Below, in pieces: positions 18,887-52,140 of a stretch of 64,000 bases of DNA (positions within the stretch are counted from its first letter, which is position 1; each line of letters opens with the position of its first letter). This DNA is from Clostridia bacterium. Lineage in GTDB: Bacteria; Bacillota; Clostridia; Christensenellales; UBA1242. Both the position numbers and the translations under genes were made by a program. The notes below the pieces were generated by a model. The model was given only the letters and a program-made list of their open reading frames with translations. It did not search any database and was not told the origin of the DNA. The stretch is taken from contig CAAGAO010000030.1 of assembly GCA_900767835.1 (NCBI GenBank), forward strand, positions 26,766-90,765, in the 5' to 3' direction.

Positions 18887-21586
18887 ATGACACTTGGTAT
18901 AGTTCAAACAATTTGGAACGCATTTTTTGATTTGATTAGTTCCACTTTAACCTTAGACATTATTTTTTATATTGGCGTAGGTTTTTTACTTTTAATGTCG
19001 CTATTCTTCTTCATAAAGGCTCGCACCTCTTATGAATACAAACTCGACAAAACAGCCGATAGGCTTAATGATTGGCTTTATAGACATCAAACTATAACAG
19101 ACCAAAACCTTGTTGAATTTAATAATATTATTAAAGACCGCAAATCTCCAAAAATATTACGCAAATATTGGCAACAATATATGTTATATCGTGACAAGGC
19201 TCCAAGCGAATATATGAGCACATATAATTGTATAGACAAACCTTTAAAAACAAGCAGTTTTACATCAAGTATTAAAAACTTTTCTATGATTTATAAAATA
19301 ACTGCACTTGTTACATTCTTCTTGTCTATGTTTTGTTTTGCAAGTCGTAACGACACAATTTTAACATATGTAACTCAATCTATGGTTGCATCTATTGTTA
19401 TTTTATTCCTTGGTGTAGTTTTAACTCTTGCCTTAAGAGCAATGCAAAACTATAATCTTGCAACCTTGTATCAATCATTCAATGTATTTGCAAGATATAT
19501 TGACAAGGCAAGCACATCTATTCCTAAATATGTTGATTTTGAAATTCTATTTACAAAACAAGAAATTAATGATGGTATCCCAATTTTAGGCGAATACTTA
19601 GAAAAACGTGCTCGCCAAGAACAAGAAGAATTGGAAGAAGCACAAAGAAATGCTGTTGCACACGAAGAATATGATTTTTCTACCTCTGGTATTGATGGTT
19701 CACTTGTGTTAGAACGTGCTATGAAAGAGTCCGAAACTTATCTTAATATTAAACAAAGACTTCTTACCGAAATTCAACAATTTGAATCTGAAATTGCAAC
19801 TTTAAAGAAAAATTACGAAAATACTTCAAAAGACTATCAACGTAAACTTCAAGCATCTAAAGAAAATATGGAAAGACTTCGTCAACAACAAGAAGAATCC
19901 ACCAATCGTATTGAAGTTAACTATATTAGAAAACAACAACAAGACGAAGTAAAAAAGCAAGAGCAATTAGAAAAAGACCAAGAAGATGCAACAAACAAAT
20001 TTAATGCTGAAATTAACTCATTAAATGTTGAAATTGAAAAACGTAGAGCTGAACTTGAAAGCAAGAAAAAGGGTGTTCAAGAAGCAATGCTTAACGAATA
20101 TCAAACATTCTCTACAAAACTTCACAAGAATATTTCAGACGAAGTCGAAAAAAGCAAAAACGAAAGCATACAACAAGTTAATATTGAAAAAGAACAATAT
20201 GCTCAAGCAATTACTTATCTTAAAAATGAAGTTGATAAGAGCAACGAATTGATTAAATCTAAAGACCAAACCATTGCAGAACTTGCAACTAAACTTCAAG
20301 AATATCTAGGCGGTAAATATGCCGAACAACAAACCGAAAAAACTGACGAAGAAGTAACCAATATCGAAACCGTAGATAAAACCCAAGAACAACCAGCAGA
20401 ACAAGAGCCAGTACAAGAGCAAGAAATTGAACAAACTCAAGAACAAGCAACTGAAGACGAAGAAGAAATGCAAGGTCATTATGACAAAAACGGATATTAC
20501 TGGTTTAATAATGGAACATATTACGACAACAATAATTTATATCACGACTTAGAAGGTAATGTTTTTGATGCTGACGGCAATGTTGTTGAAACTGGAATGC
20601 CAGTGGAAAAAGAAACTGAAGAAAATGCTCAAAAAGAACAAGAAGAAATAAAAGAAGAACCACAAGAAGAGCCACAAGAAGAAATAAAAGAAGAACCACA
20701 AGAAGAGCCACAAGAAGAAATAAAAGAAGGACCACAAGAAGAGCCACAAGAAGAAACTAAGGCTGTAGAAGTAGAAGAAGAAAATATCGTAGAAAATTCA
20801 AAACAAGTTGACTCAGCAGCCGAAGAGCCAGAAAAGAAACCTGAAGAACAGGAAGTGGAAGAAGAACAACCTACCGAGCAAACCAAAGAAGAAAAACAAA
20901 ACGAACAAACTCAAGAAAATGCTCCTTTAGAAGAGGGACAACCTGTTGAAGCAAAAGAACCAGTTGATGGTAAAAAAGATTTAAGCGGTAACTTTACTTA
21001 CGAAGATGGCACTTATTACGATAAAGACAACTTATACCATAACAAAGACGGCAAAGTATTTAACACTGAAGGTGTGGAAGTTAAACTAGAAGAAAAGCAA
21101 GCTGAAAATAAAGAAGAACAACCAACAGAAGAAAAACCAAAACGCAAAGCAGGACGCCCTAGAAAAGAGAACATTGAAGGTGTAGAGGACAAGCCTAAAC
21201 GCAAAGTAGGCAGACCTAAAAAAGAAAAGACTGAGGTTGTAGAGGACAAACCTAAACGTAAAGCCGGTCGTCCTAAAAAAGAAAAGACTGAAGTTGTAGA
21301 GGACAAACCTAAACGCAAAGCTGGTCGTCCTAAAAAAGTCAAAGAGGAAGTTGTAGAAGAAAAACCAAAACGCAAAGTTGGCAGACCTAAAAAAGCAATA
21401 ACCGAAAAACAACCAAACACAAAACGCAAAGTTGGCAGACCTAAAAAAGAACAACCAGCAGAAGAAAAACCAAAACGCAAAGCAGGACGTCCTAAAAAAA
21501 CCGACGTTAATGACCAAAGTGCAAAACTTTTACAACAATTAGGTCAATCATTATTAAATATAACTGCTAATAACAATAACGAGTAG
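18887..21586 (+). CDS. Membrane-anchored coiled-coil protein with an acidic repeat tract and a C-terminal array of seven AT-hook repeats
   Basis: GAGGAG RBS. Three predicted TM helices lie in the first ~190 aa. A long heptad-rich E/K/Q region follows. EEPQEEPQEEIK occurs three times. KRK(A/V)GRP(K/R)K occurs seven times. Confidence 0.75.
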   Translation: MTLGIVQTIWNAFFDLISSTLTLDIIFYIGVGFLLLMSLFFFIKARTSYEYKLDKTADRLNDWLYRHQTITDQNLVEFNNIIKDRKSPKILRKYWQQYMLYRDKAPSEYMSTYNCIDKPLKTSSFTSSIKNFSMIYKITALVTFFLSMFCFASRNDTILTYVTQSMVASIVILFLGVVLTLALRAMQNYNLATLYQSFNVFARYIDKASTSIPKYVDFEILFTKQEINDGIPILGEYLEKRARQEQEELEEAQRNAVAHEEYDFSTSGIDGSLVLERAMKESETYLNIKQRLLTEIQQFESEIATLKKNYENTSKDYQRKLQASKENMERLRQQQEESTNRIEVNYIRKQQQDEVKKQEQLEKDQEDATNKFNAEINSLNVEIEKRRAELESKKKGVQEAMLNEYQTFSTKLHKNISDEVEKSKNESIQQVNIEKEQYAQAITYLKNEVDKSNELIKSKDQTIAELATKLQEYLGGKYAEQQTEKTDEEVTNIETVDKTQEQPAEQEPVQEQEIEQTQEQATEDEEEMQGHYDKNGYYWFNNGTYYDNNNLYHDLEGNVFDADGNVVETGMPVEKETEENAQKEQEEIKEEPQEEPQEEIKEEPQEEPQEEIKEGPQEEPQEETKAVEVEEENIVENSKQVDSAAEEPEKKPEEQEVEEEQPTEQTKEEKQNEQTQENAPLEEGQPVEAKEPVDGKKDLSGNFTYEDGTYYDKDNLYHNKDGKVFNTEGVEVKLEEKQAENKEEQPTEEKPKRKAGRPRKENIEGVEDKPKRKVGRPKKEKTEVVEDKPKRKAGRPKKEKTEVVEDKPKRKAGRPKKVKEEVVEEKPKRKVGRPKKAITEKQPNTKRKVGRPKKEQPAEEKPKRKAGRPKKTDVNDQSAKLLQQLGQSLLNITANNNNE
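21131..21500 (+). repeat. In-frame tandem repeats (~60 bp in the regular central copies) encoding the AT-hook array
   Basis: Units such as gaggacaaacctaaacg(t/c)aaagc(c/t)ggtcgtcctaaaaaagaaaagactga(a/g)gttgta are repeated near-identically. Confidence 0.85.
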
Positions 21587-21646: not shown

Positions 21647-22191
21647 CTTTAAATATCAAGCAAAACCAACAATGTAATGTTACAATATAATCAAAATAAA
21701 TTTTACACAGCATAAACTATTTAATACTTAAAAATGCTATATATAAAAATACAAAAATCAATATCATTTTACTACAATGTGTTAAATAATTTAATTGTTA
21801 CAAGAAGTAAATATGAATAAAATATGTCAAAGTTGCGTTATGATAATTATAGAAAATGAGTAATAAAACATAAACTAAGATATAATTATAAATAACGATT
21901 ATTACAAAATAACGATTATTACAAATATTGTTATAATAATGCCAAAAATATTGATAAATAGATAATAATACATACATTGAAATATGTTCACGATATGGCT
22001 ATCAAGTAAATATGCCCAATGACGAAATGAAAGTATCTTGCACAAAATTATAACCAACTTTAAAAAGATGGGCAAAACCAAAATAAAAAATAATAATTTC
22101 AAAATCAATCTAACATAATTAACTATTATTAAGATTGATTTTATTTACTTTTAGTGTTATACTAAAACTACAATTATTAAAGGAGGTTGCA

Positions 22192-23421
22192 ATGGACGAA
22201 TTTGATAATGAATCAAATCAGCAAGCCGAAAAAATGGGTAGTAAACTCAAACAAACCGCAAAAAAGGCTGGAAACAAAGTAAAAAGTGCAGTAGCCAACT
22301 CTGCAAGAGTCGCCACAAAAGTAATGAAAAATCCACTCTTTTGGAAAGCACTTTTAATTGTTGGTTGCATTTTTCTTGCAGTATTCTTTATTATCGTTAT
22401 AATTGAGGTGATTGCAAGTGCCTTTTCATTTAATCCATTCAACCCAGTTAATGGCACTTTGAGGTCTGTTTTTGGTATTCAAAGCGACAAATTTTATGGT
22501 GCTAGAATGATATATGAAGATGACGAAACTGCCAACGCAGAAATTAAAGATATCTATCTTAAATTTACACAAAACATAATAATTGACATCAATAACGATG
22601 ATGCAAAAGTTAGTATAGATACAACAACTCACAACAATAATCAAATTACAATTTTGGTCACAAATTTTGCAAAACAATTAGCCCTAAACACAAATCCAAC
22701 CGCAAATGTAAACACTTTAGATGACAGTTTAAATATAATCACACATTACGGGTTTAATGACTCTGAGGCAAGTATAGTGTTTAACTCTATTGCAAGCGAC
22801 ATAAAAGATAACGGACTTACAACAACAGAAAAAACAGAATTAACCGAAAAAATGCAAAATGCATATTCAAATGAAAAGTATTCAATAATTAAAAAAATAT
22901 TGCCAAAAATAACAATTAAAGATAAGTTATTTACAGGAAATAACACTGAACTTGAAGAACTCACTAGAGAAAAATATTTAGGCTATGTATTTATGCCAAA
23001 AGATAATGTAACTTTTAAAACTTTATCTTTTAGATTTGTTGTAACTCAAGACCACACCGCTGAAGTCGAATTAAAACATTACACACAAAGCGGAATACAA
23101 ACAATAAAAGAAAAAACAACAGTAGACAATTCTTGGTACAATGTCGACACCGAAGAATTTACCGATTATGAAGTAACTAATCTTAGTGAAAATGTAACAC
23201 CATTTACAGCAATAAACACCGCGAATATTCAGGAACTTGCTGACGGTGTAAGTATTTATTACTTGCTTGCAAATAACCTATATAGCACTTATTTTAAGGC
23301 TTTTGAAGGCGAATATACGGGGCAAAATTTATTAGAAAATATCAACTCCGACAATTATATTTACTTGCAATGTTCGAATGACGGAGCCTTTAATTTAGCC
23401 GAATATGTTACCGAATATTAA
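22192..23421 (+). CDS. Bitopic membrane protein of unknown function (about 60-aa basic N-terminus, one TM, about 330-aa C-terminal domain)
   Basis: An AGGAGG RBS lies 6 nt before the ATG at 22192. The TM segment is LFWKALLIVGCIFLAVFFIIVIIEVIASAF. Confidence 0.65.
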   Translation: MDEFDNESNQQAEKMGSKLKQTAKKAGNKVKSAVANSARVATKVMKNPLFWKALLIVGCIFLAVFFIIVIIEVIASAFSFNPFNPVNGTLRSVFGIQSDKFYGARMIYEDDETANAEIKDIYLKFTQNIIIDINNDDAKVSIDTTTHNNNQITILVTNFAKQLALNTNPTANVNTLDDSLNIITHYGFNDSEASIVFNSIASDIKDNGLTTTEKTELTEKMQNAYSNEKYSIIKKILPKITIKDKLFTGNNTELEELTREKYLGYVFMPKDNVTFKTLSFRFVVTQDHTAEVELKHYTQSGIQTIKEKTTVDNSWYNVDTEEFTDYEVTNLSENVTPFTAINTANIQELADGVSIYYLLANNLYSTYFKAFEGEYTGQNLLENINSDNYIYLQCSNDGAFNLAEYVTEY

Positions 23422-23430
23422 TTTTATGTA

Positions 23431-23478
23431 AAAAATAAAAAATATGATTTAACCTTGAAAGGTTAAATCATATTTTTT
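23431..23478. terminator. Bidirectional terminator between convergent genes
   Basis: 13-bp stem atatgatttaacc/ggttaaatcatat flanked by an A-run and a T-run. Confidence 0.75.
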
Positions 23479-23537: not shown

Positions 23538-25823
23538 TTATTTAATTTTGTTTTTATTCATTATGTCTTTTATTTGGTCTGAAAGTGGAAGAACAGATGC
23601 AACATTTCCAATATTGCCAGATGCTCTTTTAATTTCACCGTCAGCATGTTTAACTACGCCACCAGCAGCCCTTGCAATTCTTTGCTTAGTTTTACTACTT
23701 TCAAGTTTCTTGTTAAGTCTTTCAACTTCTTTCTTATTGTCTTCAAAGGCTTTATCTCTAGCAGTTTTAAGTTTTGATTGTTCTTCTTTAACTGCTTTAA
23801 TTTTAGCGTCTGCAGATGTCCTTCTTTCATCAAGACCTGTTTGCCCTTGACGGAACATAGATGCAAGTTGTGCTTTTCTTGCTTCATTTTCGGTATTAGA
23901 AAGACTTGTATCATATTTGTAATAACTATCCATTTTCTTAGCATCATCTTTTGCATACATTTCATCAAGTACTTGTTTTCTAAATGCTGAATCATTTTTA
24001 ACTTTATCTTGGAAATCCATAACTTCTTGAGATGAATTCTTCTTGCCAACAAAATGCGATTTTTTATATGCTTTAATCATTGCATTATCATTATCTTGAG
24101 TACGAGCAGTAAAGCCTCCAGTTGCATTTGTAAATTCATTAAATGATGCTTGGTCAGCATTAATTGAATCTAGTTCGCTTTGATTTGTAGCCATTTGATT
24201 TGCCCAAGATTCTTCTTGTGCATCAAACTCTTTAGTCTGCTTATCGTAATCTTTACCAGTTTGATTAATCTTCTTATTAATACGGTCTCTTTGTGATGCA
24301 GAATGTGCTCTTGCCATAAAGCCAGCAGCCTTTCCAATACCTCTAGCAGGAAGAGTAATAGGCATTGCGGCAAGACGAGCAGCACTTAGGGTTGTGTTTA
24401 CACCTTTTGCAAAATTACCAGATATTGCATCTGCAGTTTTACCCACTGCTTCATAATTTCCTGAATCTCCAGTGAATAATTTAGCAAATGCTTTGTTTAA
24501 TGAGTCTACCGCATTAAAGGCAGCCATTAAGAAGAATGTTGTTATAATATAATCAATGAATGGAATATTGAATAATTTGATTGTTTGCCAAATTGCAATA
24601 ATAGGAGAAACTAAGTTTAATGTTCCAACCATTATAGAAAGCAATATAAATTTGGTTATAAACATTCCCCTCCAAGACTCTAACGACTTACCACCATCAA
24701 GTGGCATAAGGGAAGTAGAAATTGGAGCAACAACAAACAAACCAATAACTTCGAAGAATCTTTGCATTAAATATAGTACAAAACTAAAATACAATTTACC
24801 AATAGTCATGGTTGCAATAAATGCAATTATGTAATTAAATGTCCACAAATCGTAGAAGTAATAAACCGCATTAACATTATATTTACTTAAACTACTAATA
24901 TTGTTATATTGCCAAGTTCCAATTGTAATAAAATCACAATCTGGATAAAATTCTTTTATTATATTCTTATTTAACGAAGTTGTATCTTTTAGTTTAGCAT
25001 TTATAGCAAAACCAGTGTCAATTATATCTCCAGCAGAATTTGCGTCATTAAAGTTACCTAAGAAGCCTAAAGTGTTATCATTTTTTAACACTTTATAATA
25101 TTCCTCATTGTTTCTAATTCTATTACACCCATACGCACACGCTTTAAACACAATTCCACTAAAAGGCTCTGTAGTAGTAGGAATATGTAGACCAAAAATT
25201 TCATAAGCCATATAGGAATCTTGTTTGTTTTTTAATACATCTTCATTAAAAGCAGCAGAACCAGAGTTACTATCTTCTACCGCATTCCATTGTGCATAAT
25301 AAGTAGAGACCTCAGATTGTGTAGATGTAGGCTGAGTTGTGACGGTATTTACAACACCAACCAAAGCATTAAATAAGAACATACCTACTAAGCAAGAAAC
25401 CGGAACAATTGCAAAAGAGAAAATTGCTTTAAAGAAATTCTTAACAACTCCCGATTTAGAATTTCCTTTTTCTTTGTCTGGGTTATATTCTAATCTTAAA
25501 AGTGCAATTATCGAAGTGATAATCAACATAAACACGCCTAAGATAATTAGTGACCAAAATATAGTCTTTATTGCAGGATATTTAGAACTAAACAAAGCAT
25601 CGATAATTATTTTATAAACCGAATCCCCAACATATGGGTCTGTCTCACCAACAATTGTAATAGATTCAAGTCCTGCTAGTTTTCTAAATGCTAGTTGACA
25701 TAAGTCAATTACTGATAACACACACGACACAATAAAGTAAAGAAATTTAGGCATAATTGTCAACAAACTCTTTATAGCATCCATAATTGCGTCGCCAACT
25801 GCCCCCAAAAGCATTGCGTTCAT
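23538..25823 (-). CDS. Large polytopic membrane protein with a charged, coiled-coil C-terminal third (VirB6/TcpH/Orf15-like architecture)
   Basis: At least 6 hydrophobic helices lie in the first ~450 aa, with a ~200-aa loop. The C-terminal ~300 aa is K/E/Q-rich. An AAGGAG RBS precedes the ATG at 25823, whereas the track start at 25880 lacks an RBS. Confidence 0.6.
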   Translation of the reverse strand: MNAMLLGAVGDAIMDAIKSLLTIMPKFLYFIVSCVLSVIDLCQLAFRKLAGLESITIVGETDPYVGDSVYKIIIDALFSSKYPAIKTIFWSLIILGVFMLIITSIIALLRLEYNPDKEKGNSKSGVVKNFFKAIFSFAIVPVSCLVGMFLFNALVGVVNTVTTQPTSTQSEVSTYYAQWNAVEDSNSGSAAFNEDVLKNKQDSYMAYEIFGLHIPTTTEPFSGIVFKACAYGCNRIRNNEEYYKVLKNDNTLGFLGNFNDANSAGDIIDTGFAINAKLKDTTSLNKNIIKEFYPDCDFITIGTWQYNNISSLSKYNVNAVYYFYDLWTFNYIIAFIATMTIGKLYFSFVLYLMQRFFEVIGLFVVAPISTSLMPLDGGKSLESWRGMFITKFILLSIMVGTLNLVSPIIAIWQTIKLFNIPFIDYIITTFFLMAAFNAVDSLNKAFAKLFTGDSGNYEAVGKTADAISGNFAKGVNTTLSAARLAAMPITLPARGIGKAAGFMARAHSASQRDRINKKINQTGKDYDKQTKEFDAQEESWANQMATNQSELDSINADQASFNEFTNATGGFTARTQDNDNAMIKAYKKSHFVGKKNSSQEVMDFQDKVKNDSAFRKQVLDEMYAKDDAKKMDSYYKYDTSLSNTENEARKAQLASMFRQGQTGLDERRTSADAKIKAVKEEQSKLKTARDKAFEDNKKEVERLNKKLESSKTKQRIARAAGGVVKHADGEIKRASGNIGNVASVLPLSDQIKDIMNKNKIK

Positions 25824-26119
25824 AATTAGAAATCTCCTTTTTATACTTTTAGTATACCAAAAACCAATAAATTTGTACATAGTTTTTTGTAAAATAATTA
25901 AATAATATTTAATTAATATTTCTACGCTTAGTTGAAAAGCAGTTAAATGCTAAACATTTTAAAATGGAATAAGCATAAACTAAAATCAATGCTTAATAAA
26001 AACATTTCGTAAAATAGTATTAAATAATTTAAAAGTCTTAGTATTCATAAACTTAAGAAACCATAGTTAAAATTATAAAAAATAAGGCATGTTTAACTTT
26101 TTCATTTTCTTGATATTAC

Positions 26120-26150
26120 AAAAAAGACCTTTGATTTAAAGGTCTTTTTA
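26120..26150 (-). terminator. Hairpin terminator between the 117-aa and the polytopic-protein genes
   Basis: Stem agaccttt/aaaggtct with flanking A- and T-runs. Confidence 0.55.
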
Positions 26151-26176
26151 CTTACTACTAATTTGATTGTTTATAA

Positions 26177-26530
26177 TTATTCAGCAGCAGGAATCCAACG
26201 TGGTAACATAGTTCCAACAAATAATTTCAACAACAATACTAAGCCTACAGAAATTGCCATACCGATTAAAACATTGATAACGCGTTTTTTTGCTTCTTCG
26301 CGTTTTTCAGTAGAATCTGCTCTTGCCATTTGAACACCTAAAACAATAGAATAAATTGTTCCAGCAGCGGCAACTAAAATAACTAGTGGCCAAGTTGCAG
26401 CATTGATAACATCAGTAATATCATATACCCAGTTAAAATCGCCCAAATCTTTTTCATCACCAGTAGGATCACGAAGTGGGACAATATATTTTGCCATAAA
26501 TGTACAAACCTTTGCTAAAATTAAATTCAT
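26177..26530 (-). CDS. Small two-TM membrane protein (pilin-like / VirB2-TcpE-like topology)
   Basis: GGAGG RBS. Two hydrophobic helices (WPLVILVAAAGTIYSIVLGV and VINVLIGMAISVGLVLLLKLFVG) are separated by the charged loop ARADSTEKREEAKKR. Confidence 0.5.
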   Translation of the reverse strand: MNLILAKVCTFMAKYIVPLRDPTGDEKDLGDFNWVYDITDVINAATWPLVILVAAAGTIYSIVLGVQMARADSTEKREEAKKRVINVLIGMAISVGLVLLLKLFVGTMLPRWIPAAE

Positions 26531-26933
26531 AATAAACCTCCAAATTATTTAATTTTATCTTTTGCAGAAATATTTTTAATATTCCCACTAAATTGTTTAC
26601 ATTCATATATTATCATATTATTTTTTTAAATGCAAAACAATTTTTAATATTTTTCAATATTTTTTTAAAAATATTTATTTTTTTATTTTTCTATGCTAAT
26701 TAAAACTTATTTTTTACTAAAATATGTAGCATAATTATTAAATTATTAATAAATAATAATATATCATAAATTAAATCATTCATTTTTATTTTTAAATATT
26801 GAATCTTTACGCGAATTTAATTTCAAAATATCTAGTTTTTGCGTTTTACAGTAATTATCAACCATTAGACTTAAAAAATATTTGTTTATTATTTTAATAT
26901 ATGTTATCATTTTACCAAAAGAAGGTAATAACT

Positions 26934-27920
26934 ATGACAAAAACAACGGCAAAAAAAAGAATAATTTCAACTTGTTCAATTATACTAATATTATTATTAC
27001 TTATAGGAGTTGTCCTTATTTATTATTTTGGAAAAAGATATGATTTTTATAATTATTCAACCGCCGAAGTTCAAATACCAGGACTTCAAGACGGATTCAT
27101 TCCCCAAGGGCTATGCAACATAGATAACACTAACGGGTATTTAATTAGCGGATATATGAAAGATAGCCAAAAAAATTCTCGCATATATTATGTAAACAAA
27201 GACGGCACTTGCAAATATATCACAATTGACACTCTTGACACCAATTTGAATAAAGGACATTTCGGGGGAGTGGCTATGTACGAAAATATGGTATGGCTTG
27301 TATCTGATGGATACTTATTCAATTTTACTTTAGAAAATATTGTAAACGCAGAAAATTCAACAACCATTACCGCAATAAGTATTTTTAATACTCAAATAAA
27401 CACTGACTTTTGCTATGCCAAAGACGGGCTATTATATATTGGCGAATTTTACAAAGCAAAAAAATACGAAGTTGATAAAGCGCACTATGTAAAAATAAGT
27501 GACACCGAAATAAACCACGGAATTACGCTTTGTTATAATATAGACACCAACAAGGAAAATGGACTAGCAAGTACAAAACCAATAAAAGCAATTTCAGTTC
27601 CAGACCAAGCACAAGGAATGTGCATAACTGATAGTGGCAAATATGTAATATCAACATCTTACTCTTTACCTGATTCTCAAATTTATGTTTACAGTACACC
27701 AGAAATAGCCAAAAACAAAATAACAATAAATGGTAATGAATTAGATTTATTTGTCTTGTCAAATGACATTTTAGAAAAAAACATTGTCGCACCTTGTATG
27801 AGCGAGGGTATAGATTACGAAAACGGCAGAGTCCATATTCTTTTTGAAAACGCTTGCAAAAAATACAAATTTTTCACTAGGGTAAGAGAAAAAAACGTAC
27901 AAAGCGTAGAAGTAAAATAG
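26934..27920 (+). CDS. N-terminally anchored extracytoplasmic protein of unknown function
   Basis: A single N-terminal TM (IISTCSIILILLLLIGVVLIYYF) is followed by a ~300-aa domain rich in G, Y, N and T. Confidence 0.55.
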   Translation: MTKTTAKKRIISTCSIILILLLLIGVVLIYYFGKRYDFYNYSTAEVQIPGLQDGFIPQGLCNIDNTNGYLISGYMKDSQKNSRIYYVNKDGTCKYITIDTLDTNLNKGHFGGVAMYENMVWLVSDGYLFNFTLENIVNAENSTTITAISIFNTQINTDFCYAKDGLLYIGEFYKAKKYEVDKAHYVKISDTEINHGITLCYNIDTNKENGLASTKPIKAISVPDQAQGMCITDSGKYVISTSYSLPDSQIYVYSTPEIAKNKITINGNELDLFVLSNDILEKNIVAPCMSEGIDYENGRVHILFENACKKYKFFTRVREKNVQSVEVK

Positions 27921-31184: not shown

Positions 31185-31335
31185 TTTTAATTTTAAGTTT
31201 GTATATTTGTAAAAAACAAAAGCCTTTTGTAGCCGAGAAAGTTACAAAAGGCTTGAAAAGACCATTTATATAAACTTAACCTCGGCAAGCACAAATTGTT
31301 TACGGATTAACTCCACTTGCTGTCTTTGGAAAAGG
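31185..31335 (-). promoter_or_regulatory. L10-leader-like autoregulatory 5' UTR with a terminator hairpin
   Basis: On the minus strand a structured region is followed by the stem agccttttgta/tacaaaaggct plus a U-run (31221-31253), immediately upstream of rplJ. This layout matches the Firmicute L10 leader attenuator. No covariance-model check was possible. Confidence 0.5.
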
Positions 31336-31410
31336 ACATTTATTAATTTACTGAAATAATAATATCACTCTTAATTATGATTGTCAAGCATTTTTCAAAT
31401 ATTTTCTATT

Positions 31411-51749: not shown

Positions 51750-52140
51750 ACACATTAATGTTTATAACTTTATACACATCAATGTTAACTTGTGGATAAC
51801 TTATAACTTTATAAAAAAATAAAGTTTTATTAATAAATTTTATTAATAATTGTTTATAATAAAAATTTGTCAAAAAGTGAAAAAATGTGAAAATGTGTAT
51901 AACATAGCAACATTTATACACATAGTTATACACATTATATTATACAATATATAGTATAATAGTTGAAATTTAAACTAAATATACAATATATATTGTGTAT
52001 TATAAATCTTATCCACTTTTTCACAGTCTATAATATTAATAATAATATCTAATAATATATTTAATATATAAAATGAAGCAAAAATTTTCTTTCTAATTAA
52101 ACATATTTATATTGTATTTAATTGTGGATAAATAGTATCT
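51750..52140. promoter_or_regulatory. Candidate oriC / DnaA-box cluster upstream of dnaN
   Basis: Perfect boxes TGTGGATAA lie at 51791-99 and 52123-31. One-mismatch boxes lie at 51770-78, 51894-902, 51914-22, 51926-34 (TTATACACA type) and 52009-17 (TTATCCACT). The flanks are extremely AT-rich. Confidence 0.6.

Follow-up and report, generated by a model that had tools for sequence, protein, structure and literature searches.

Type IV secretion systems (T4SS) of monoderm bacteria are, to our knowledge, regarded as pilin-less and as borne by plasmids or by integrative and conjugative elements (ICEs), and we know of no described T4SS that lacks VirB4, its signature ATPase. Here we examine two neighbouring genes, encoding a small protein with two hydrophobic helices and a large polytopic membrane protein, at positions 23,538 to 26,530 of a 64-kb stretch of a Clostridia bacterium genome (contig CAAGAO010000030.1), which is called the window below; an earlier note on its letters had likened both products to T4SS parts. 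Two kinds of conjugative element come closest to this pair. In ICEA of Mycoplasma agalactiae, CDS16 is VirB6-like, CDS17 is VirB4, CDS5 is VirD4, and CDS13/15 are small proteins described as VirB3-like (PMC12857230). The NCBIfam names for mollicute families are Mbov_0395 for the pilin-like protein, Mbov_0396 and MMCAP2_0566 for the transmembrane proteins and Mbov_0397 for VirB4. In the pLS20 plasmid family, which is of the MPF-FATA type, gene 48 encodes the VirD4/TraG-type coupling protein (T4CP), gene 49 a "putative extended VirB6", gene 50 a protein with two transmembrane (TM) helices, gene 52 VirB4, gene 53 VirB8 and gene 54 VirB1 (PMC8557374). On pBL151, a conjugative plasmid of C. botulinum, we found a protein of the pLS20_p028 family right after the T4CP, followed by a two-TM protein and then by VirB4, so that the pLS20_p028-family protein occupies the position of pLS20 gene 49. 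A more distant parallel is offered by the Ced/Ted systems of Crenarchaeota, presented in their description as a conjugation machine captured by its host for cellular DNA exchange (PMC9905601).

We consider it probable that the pair makes up half of a module that is fixed on the chromosome, inherited vertically and derived from a monoderm conjugative T4SS. The module comprises a VirB2-like small two-TM protein, one to three extended VirB6-like proteins, a VirD4-type ATPase and a giant (~2500 aa) membrane-anchored surface protein. In this genome it is split: the pilin-like and VirB6-like genes occupy 23.5-26.5 kb, and the T4CP and giant genes, at 41-51 kb, adjoin an oriC-like site (Table 1).

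Table 1. Positions of the module genes and associated features in the window (aa, amino acids).
Feature	Position	Strand	Basis
Extended VirB6-like polytopic membrane protein gene, 761 aa	23538..25823	-	NF045848, NF045889, hhalign, AlphaFold2 model, ribosome-binding site
Pilin-like, VirB2-like two-TM protein gene, 117 aa	26177..26530	-	PF18895, TM segments, alignment
VirD4/TraG-type coupling protein (T4CP) gene, 666 aa	41179..43179	+	PF02534, NF045973, Walker A
Giant surface protein gene, 2544 aa	43785..51419	+	Translation, TM segments
Terminator-like hairpin, AAAAAGACCTTT-AAATC-AAAGGTCTTTTT	26120..26149	-	Sequence inspection; RNAfold -12.1 kcal/mol
Terminator-like hairpin, 19 pairs	23437..23478	.	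Terminator scan
Possible accessory gene, single-pass membrane protein, 409 aa (428 aa from TTG at 22135)	22192..23421	+	Synteny

The open reading frame (ORF) of the large gene, as called mechanically, runs from 25880 to 23538 and gives 780 aa. The likely start is the ATG at 25823, because AAAGGAG precedes it and because the resulting 761 aa equal the length of P0001, a database protein identical to it throughout (100%); looking up the exact sequence of P0001 returned no record. An AlphaFold2 model for which 77 homologues were used (mean pLDDT 76.9) places three N-terminal TM helices at 2-49, 83-113 and 123-162, a mixed alpha/beta ectodomain at about 165-330 and a second set of TM helices at 331-364, 379-414 and 421-451; these six helices agree with hydropathy. 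They are followed by a long, helical, charged, coiled-coil tail at about 455-719. The protein thus has the topology of an extended VirB6, with at least five TM helices, a large extracytoplasmic loop and a hydrophilic C-terminal domain, and the earlier description of a same-strand protein of 760-780 aa with an N-terminal multi-TM domain, a large loop and a charged coiled-coil tail was borne out by both hydropathy and model.

The VirB6-like protein passes two curated NCBIfam models, NF045848 (MMCAP2_0566 family conjugal transfer protein; score 98, cut-off 90) and NF045889 (Mbov_0396 family ICE transmembrane protein; 74.4, cut-off 70), aligning to the last ~180 positions of these ~310-position mollicute models. 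Each of the 24 homologues in the alignment hits both models (E <= 0.001), and four of them also match NF045890, the pLS20_p028 family. In the profile-profile comparison, the VirB6-like family aligned with the pLS20_p028-family protein of pBL151 over residues 321-460 (hhalign probability 80.9%, E 1.3e-5). The same motif was aligned with TcpH of pCW3, at a probability of 19% and E 1.2e-3. TcpH had been named in the earlier note as a comparator for the large protein and TcpE for the small one, and neither choice received significant support; TcpE and TcpD, each compared as a single sequence with the profile of the small protein, were both negative. By these profile matches, the large protein appears homologous to the monoderm VirB6-like class, a relationship at which its predicted structure hints.

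The small protein has hydrophobic segments at about 44-69 and 82-111 with a charged loop, MARADSTEKREEAKKR, in between, just as had been read from the letters. It passes the Pfam profile PF18895 (T4SS_pilin) over residues 37-94 with 32.1 bits against a gathering threshold of 26.6. A search returned 175 homologues, and PF18895 was found in 119 of the 120 among the matches listed. Across 32 aligned pilin-like sequences, with identity down to 46%, the loop MARADSTEKREEAKKR is invariant or nearly so, while the N-terminal 35 aa are variable. A VirB2-like pilin precursor is expected to have ~100-125 aa, a leader, two hydrophobic helices and a short basic loop, and the 117-aa protein has this size and topology. 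T4SS homology, which the earlier note had raised for both proteins, is thus supported for the pair by PF18895 on one side and by NF045848 and NF045889 on the other.

Immediately 3' of the pilin stop codon, and ahead of the VirB6-like gene, lies a hairpin with a 12-bp stem followed by T residues, which was not picked up by the consensus terminator scan. It may attenuate read-through from the pilin into the VirB6-like gene, and its position suggests that the pilin is made in excess. The scan did find the second hairpin, which sits between the convergent VirB6-like and 409/428-aa genes. We also considered whether the N-terminal part of the VirB6-like protein is a homologue of the pilin, a relationship reported for CedA1 and CedA. 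This received no support (hhalign probability 0.45%); weak NCBIfam cross-hits had E values of 0.017-0.057.

The other half of the module lies ~15 kb away in the same window. The T4CP matches PF02534 with 181 bits, as well as PF12696 and PF10412, and scores 297 bits against NF045973 (conju_CD1115; cut-off 250). Two TM helices stand at its N-terminus, its Walker A motif (GTTGSGKT) is intact, and the closest plasmid T4CPs are only ~31% identical to it. The earlier note had stated that no ATPase is present; this stands for the immediate neighbourhood of the pair and fails at the scale of the window, where the T4CP is encoded, and its gene clusters with the genes of the pair in relatives. The giant protein carries a signal peptide, an ectodomain rich in N, Y and T and a C-terminal TM anchor. 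Searches of Pfam, NCBIfam and PDB were all without a match for it, and it is the candidate cell-contact adhesin of the module.

Between the stop codon of the giant gene and dnaN is a gap of 843 bp, in which seven DnaA-box-like sites, two of them perfect (TTATCCACA), were found at 51770-52131. The cluster coincides with the minimum of the cumulative GC skew at about 48-52 kb. No dnaA gene adjoins it. From these sequence features the cluster is probably oriC, and because it lies in the gap between the giant gene and dnaN, the T4CP and giant genes would abut the origin.

The linkage of the four genes was evaluated in relatives by a census with hidden Markov models (HMMs), which covered 83 sources including the window. 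The pilin gene was found in 25 of them, every time at most 8 kb from a VirB6-like gene; a co-directional VirB6-like gene starts less than 1 kb from it in 17 of these 25, and the remaining distances are 2.4-7.9 kb. The T4CP is present in 14 of the pilin-bearing sources, that is, in 13 related loci and the window, and in those 13 loci the T4CP, pilin and VirB6-like genes fall within one roughly 20-kb stretch, with the T4CP no more than about 10 kb from the other two; most of these loci have the giant gene as well. The giant gene occurs in 13 census sources; of the 12 related loci with a homologue of it, 10 have that homologue alongside the T4CP and pilin genes. The order giant(-), T4CP(-), pilin(+), VirB6-like(+) is seen in L013, L014, L026 and L081; all four genes are found in other orders in L003/L004, L021, L024 and L034, and the T4CP, pilin and VirB6-like genes stand together in L012, L028, L038 and L082.

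At least two VirB6-like paralogues are present in 25 of the 83 sources, and three stand in tandem in 16. The loci with three tandem genes are L032, L037, L039, L040, L042, L043, L045, L046, L051, L052, L059, L060, L064, L069, L070 and L075; their tandem paralogues are 25-33% identical to the VirB6-like protein of the window and lie in housekeeping contexts without a pilin or T4CP gene within 10 kb.

Compared with the mollicute ICEs, the window has a VirB6-like protein that passes the mollicute transmembrane models and a small protein whose best NCBIfam match is the adjoining pilin-like model. Both have a small two-TM gene directly upstream of the polytopic gene, and both have a VirD4 homologue in the set (PMC12857230). 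The mollicute elements, however, are mobile and carry VirB4 and a DDE transposase, whereas the window has no nearby VirB4, no mobility genes and a housekeeping context; the VirB6-like protein is also far longer (~760 aa) than the mollicute models, and the small protein remains under the equivalog cut-off. With pLS20 and pBL151 the module shares a CD1115-family T4CP, an extended VirB6 that begins with TM helices and ends in a long hydrophilic tail, adjacency of the extended VirB6 gene and the T4CP gene (in L003, L028 and L082) and a large surface protein upstream. In contrast to the window, these plasmids have VirB4, VirB8-like, VirB1-like and relaxase genes in one operon; their DUF5592 two-TM protein is not detectably similar to the window pilin, and their T4CPs are as distant as stated above.

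The surroundings of the module are those of a core chromosomal region. Its neighbours in the window include AddB/AddA, YajC, L10/L12, MetRS, HisRS, LeuRS, DnaN, ParA/ParB, MreB and RecD2, while in relatives ribosomal protein operons, SecA, UvrC, GlmS, KsgA, TatD, GerA and tRNA synthetases are found nearby, and housekeeping flanks are present at every locus examined. The order YajC-p339-pilin-VirB6-like-p428-p899-AddA-AddB is kept in close relatives with AddA identity of 51-80% (p339, p428 and p899 are described below). A single-protein scan of species-representative contigs found nothing; an alignment-based search of the species-representative genome collection found a relative encoded in at least 146 stretches. 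The conservation of the pair in its lineage, a check named in the earlier note, is confirmed by synteny down to 51% AddA identity. An exhaustive profile search for the VirB6-like family gave 1043 clusters (at 50% identity) at E <= 1e-30 and 2077 at E <= 1e-10. The hosts are uncultured Clostridia of animal and human guts, including Ca. Caccovivens, Ca. Caccopulliclostridium, Christensenellales and "Catabacter". The G+C content of the genes is unremarkable, their composition matches the rest of the window, and a tblastn search for plasmid-borne relatives of the pilin or of the VirB6-like protein returned none. Taken together, the core flanks, synteny, composition and lack of plasmid relatives indicate the vertical inheritance of a domesticated module.

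In comparison with an orthologue of 87% identity, the VirB6-like gene had a dN/dS of 0.12, the pilin gene one of 0.40, p428 one of 0.08 and YajC one of 0.07. The low dS of the pilin gene, 0.19 as compared to 0.43-0.95 in its neighbours (window 26177-26530 against L080 3974-4330, from the 87%-related genome), could reflect strong constraint at the codon or RNA level or a recent gene conversion.

A decayed or domesticated remnant of a conjugative element had been one of the two explanations offered in the earlier note, and only its second half fits. That the genes belong to a decaying ICE and are non-functional or being lost would account for the split module and for the lack of VirB4, relaxase, integrase and hydrolase genes nearby, but we regard it as very unlikely: intact genes, purifying selection and deep synteny leave decay unsupported. 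The VirB6-like family also forms thousands of clusters, with two or three tandem paralogues in many genomes, and the pilin loop and the T4CP motifs are preserved.

The opposite possibility, that a still-mobile ICE or integrated plasmid is inserted here, draws on the T4CP being of the CD1115 family, a type characteristic of conjugative elements in clostridia. We give it hardly any credence, since core genes flank the module and neither an integrase nor a relaxase nor a repeat boundary is seen, the chromosomal position is the same in several species-level relatives, plasmid T4CPs are distant and the composition is that of the window. No relaxase or integrase was found among the window ORFs, nor was a cell-wall hydrolase, in agreement with the earlier note. 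As no relaxase, integrase or mobile-element setting accompanies it, the system is probably there for the cell and not for spreading a mobile element.

Several results weigh against a T4SS-derived module, and the first group concerns the identity of its parts. The 117-aa protein scores 33.8 bits (E 1.9e-8) against NF045849, the equivalog model "Mbov_0395 family pilin-like conjugal transfer protein", and so remains below its cut-off of 40; by its score it is related to this family and is not a member by the NCBI criterion. An equivalence with the two-TM DUF5592 protein of pLS20 and pBL151, which is VirB3-like, was rejected because similarity was undetected. The label "pilin" is putative, because small proteins of mollicute ICEs (CDS13/15) have been called VirB3-like (PMC12857230), and a VirB3-like role is also possible for the 117-aa protein. 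For the VirB6-like protein, the Pfam scan gave no match of any kind, including TrbL/VirB6 (PF04610), and Foldseek of its model against PDB found nothing significant, although R388 TrwI/VirB6 chains recur among the top matches (E 0.65-4.4); both of these checks had been proposed in the earlier note. PDB sequence searches with profiles returned coiled-coil or chance matches only. In 58 of the 83 loci, VirB6-like paralogues occur without a pilin or T4CP gene within 10 kb.

These blanks in Pfam and Foldseek, together with the non-significant comparisons to TcpH, TcpE and TcpD, are what one would expect of unrelated membrane proteins whose topology mimics T4SS parts, the other explanation in the earlier note. 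Such mimicry is nevertheless most improbable, as both proteins pass curated HMM cut-offs in independent libraries, the profile-profile match to the plasmid extended VirB6 reaches E 1.3e-5, and linkage to a bona fide T4CP recurs across lineages.

The second group concerns the completeness of the machine. Measured against a complete conjugative T4SS of the MPF-FATA type, the module offers the T4CP, while VirB4, a relaxase or mobile context and VirB8- or VirB1-like parts are missing from what was searched; neither a VirB1-like hydrolase nor a VirB8-like gene was found in the window. No VirB4 was found among the ORFs of the window or of ~16 kb beyond its ends, none in 1.41 Mb flanking family members (by jackhmmer seeded with the T4CP and phmmer with the VirB4 of pBL151), and no VirB4-like ORF in the 13 related loci with T4CP, pilin and VirB6-like genes. 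The observation that VirB4 is not encoded beside the pair, made in the earlier note, is therefore confirmed locally, for the window, its flanks and the related loci, while absence at the level of the whole genome is not established. Because virB4 is the second gene after the virB6-like one on pBL151, its absence from every clustered locus is notable. By known standards the machine lacks parts, unless these are encoded elsewhere. The substrate, the direction of transport and the assembly of the parts into one machine are what we infer from gene linkage and homology.

One candidate for VirB4 was considered and rejected: in L042 the tandem VirB6-like genes are followed, 3 kb downstream, by an ORF with a Walker A motif, which proved to be an anti-phage HerA and is unique to that locus. 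Directly 3' of the three VirB6-like genes there, L042 12676-19803 forms a defence island with a Dam-like methyltransferase, a HerA-type ATPase and a CBASS-like cyclase.

It is quite possible that the T4SS is complete and scattered, with VirB4, and perhaps VirB3-, VirB8- and VirB1-like parts, elsewhere on the chromosome, as in rvh of Rickettsiales and many Patescibacteria; what is described here would then be just one portion of a conventional machine, and this explanation departs from the preferred reading on VirB4 only. VirB4 is, as far as we know, universal in described T4SS, the visible part of the genome amounts to 64 kb plus ~16 kb of flanks, and the module already lies in two islands 15 kb apart, which makes further scattering plausible. 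Patescibacteria often have genes for T4SS parts, the T4CP among them, at a distance from virB4 (PMC12102498). The placement of virB4 on pBL151 speaks against scattering, as do the NCBIfam names, which imply adjacent locus tags in the mollicute ICE; moreover, VirB4 was found in none of the 13 T4CP-bearing related loci and nowhere in the 1.41 Mb, the single weak match being the anti-phage HerA in the defence island.

The alternative, of which we are doubtful and which we put forward tentatively, is that uncultured gut Clostridia have a VirB4-independent machine, made of the VirD4-type ATPase, one to three extended VirB6 proteins, the pilin and the giant adhesin, chromosomally fixed, in this genome beside the replication origin, and used for host-beneficial transfer from cell to cell, such as the exchange or uptake of chromosomal DNA.

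If the module works as its parts suggest, the giant protein would make contact with another cell. The VirB6-like protein would form the membrane channel, and its coiled-coil tail would dock the T4CP hexamer in the cytoplasm; by the positive-inside rule both termini of the VirB6-like protein are predicted to be cytoplasmic, so that the tail could reach the T4CP. The T4CP would use ATP and feed a substrate, most likely DNA or alternatively protein, through the channel, and the abundant pilin-like subunit might build a short conduit or fibre across the wall. As to the role of the module, our preferred guess is DNA exchange or uptake as in Ced/Ted; alternatively, it may be contact-dependent protein delivery or attachment, as proposed for Patescibacteria (PMC12102498).

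The resemblance to domesticated systems of other hosts is one of composition. Like the module, Ced/Ted is chromosomal and relaxase-free, and its minimal set consists of a VirB2-like two-TM pilin, a VirB6-like polytopic protein and one ATPase (PMC9905601). That ATPase is VirB4/HerA-like, whereas here it is VirD4-like, and archaea stand against bacteria; the sequence relationship is limited to a 15-bit match at the Walker A region of the T4CP. A giant adhesin is, as far as we know, not part of Ced/Ted, where aggregation proceeds via Ups pili. The T4SS of Patescibacteria (the candidate phyla radiation, CPR) shares with the module PF18895-type VirB2-like pilins in a monoderm host, VirB6 homologues and a mostly relaxase-free state, and it is chromosomal, widely conserved and often near the replication origin (PMC12102498), as the T4CP and giant genes of the window abut the oriC-like cluster. 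It is, however, defined by VirB4 and comes with TrsD, PrgI/VirB3 and arrays of pilin genes (PMC12102498), whereas here no VirB4 was found in the sequences searched, each locus has one pilin gene, the VirB6-like gene is the one amplified and the host belongs to Bacillota.

The rvh system of Rickettsiales is chromosomal, lies in separate islands and contains tandem arrays of enlarged VirB6 paralogues; it is a diderm P-type system with VirB3, B4, B8, B9, B10, B11 and D4. Four VirB6 paralogues are present in Ehrlichia (PMC12857230). The split islands and the tandem enlarged VirB6 genes, seen here in the 16 related loci with three tandem VirB6-like genes, are common to rvh and the module, while a sequence relationship of rvh to the window genes is undetectable. 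Ced/Ted, the Patescibacteria systems and rvh all differ from the module in host phylum, in its VirD4-type protein being the sole detected ATPase and in its giant adhesin.

Among the neighbouring genes, the possible accessory gene for the 409/428-aa protein (p428) is convergent with the VirB6-like gene, as had been noted for the downstream neighbour of the pair. In relatives it adjoins the VirB6-like gene in two orientations, convergent in L001-L011 and co-directional in L010, and only 13 homologues of this lineage-restricted protein were found. Its AlphaFold2 model has a pLDDT of 85.9, and above 90 for the ectodomain, which combines an alpha/beta domain with a beta-sandwich. Comparison with PDB gave no significant match, the best being CBM32-like at E 0.04. 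We therefore rejected p428 as a VirB8/TcpC-like component, as this confident model has neither an NTF2 fold nor a VirB8 match.

Between AddA and the p428/VirB6-like genes lies a gene for an 899-aa protein (p899; window 18887-21586, + strand), a synteny kept in the close relatives L001-L011. The protein has three N-terminal TM segments, a long coiled coil and acidic E/Q/P-rich repeats, and its C-terminus contains about nine AT-hook-like KPKRK(A/V)GRPKK repeats; it looks like a membrane-anchored DNA-binding protein. It was also considered as a divergent VirB6 paralogue and rejected (hhalign probability 1.8%). On the other side, divergent from the pilin gene, is a gene for a 339-aa protein (p339; window 26901-27920, + strand) with one N-terminal TM segment, for which family searches found no match. 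It adjoins the pilin gene in the close relatives L001-L008, L065 and L080 and is absent in L011. Upstream of the L10/L12 genes, a ribosomal protein L10 leader (Rfam RF00557, 76 bits) was identified at window 31207-31347 on the - strand, which confirms the core chromosomal nature of the region. About 8-10 kb past the right end of the window, L084 1-1694 encodes a 1885-aa protein with a faint RHS-repeat signal, which may be a contact-dependent toxin.

Literature text searches found no paper describing this module, which is unnamed, widespread and chromosomally fixed in gut Clostridia. It would be another independent domestication of a T4SS, after those of Ced/Ted and Patescibacteria. Should VirB4 really be missing, the module would show that a working translocon can be built from a T4CP and a VirB6-like protein, and a VirB4-independent machine of this kind would be a bacterial counterpart of archaeal Ced/Ted and the first T4SS-type apparatus without VirB4. 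The module also offers a tangible genetic starting point for asking how gut Clostridia that are abundant but uncultured interact with the cells around them.

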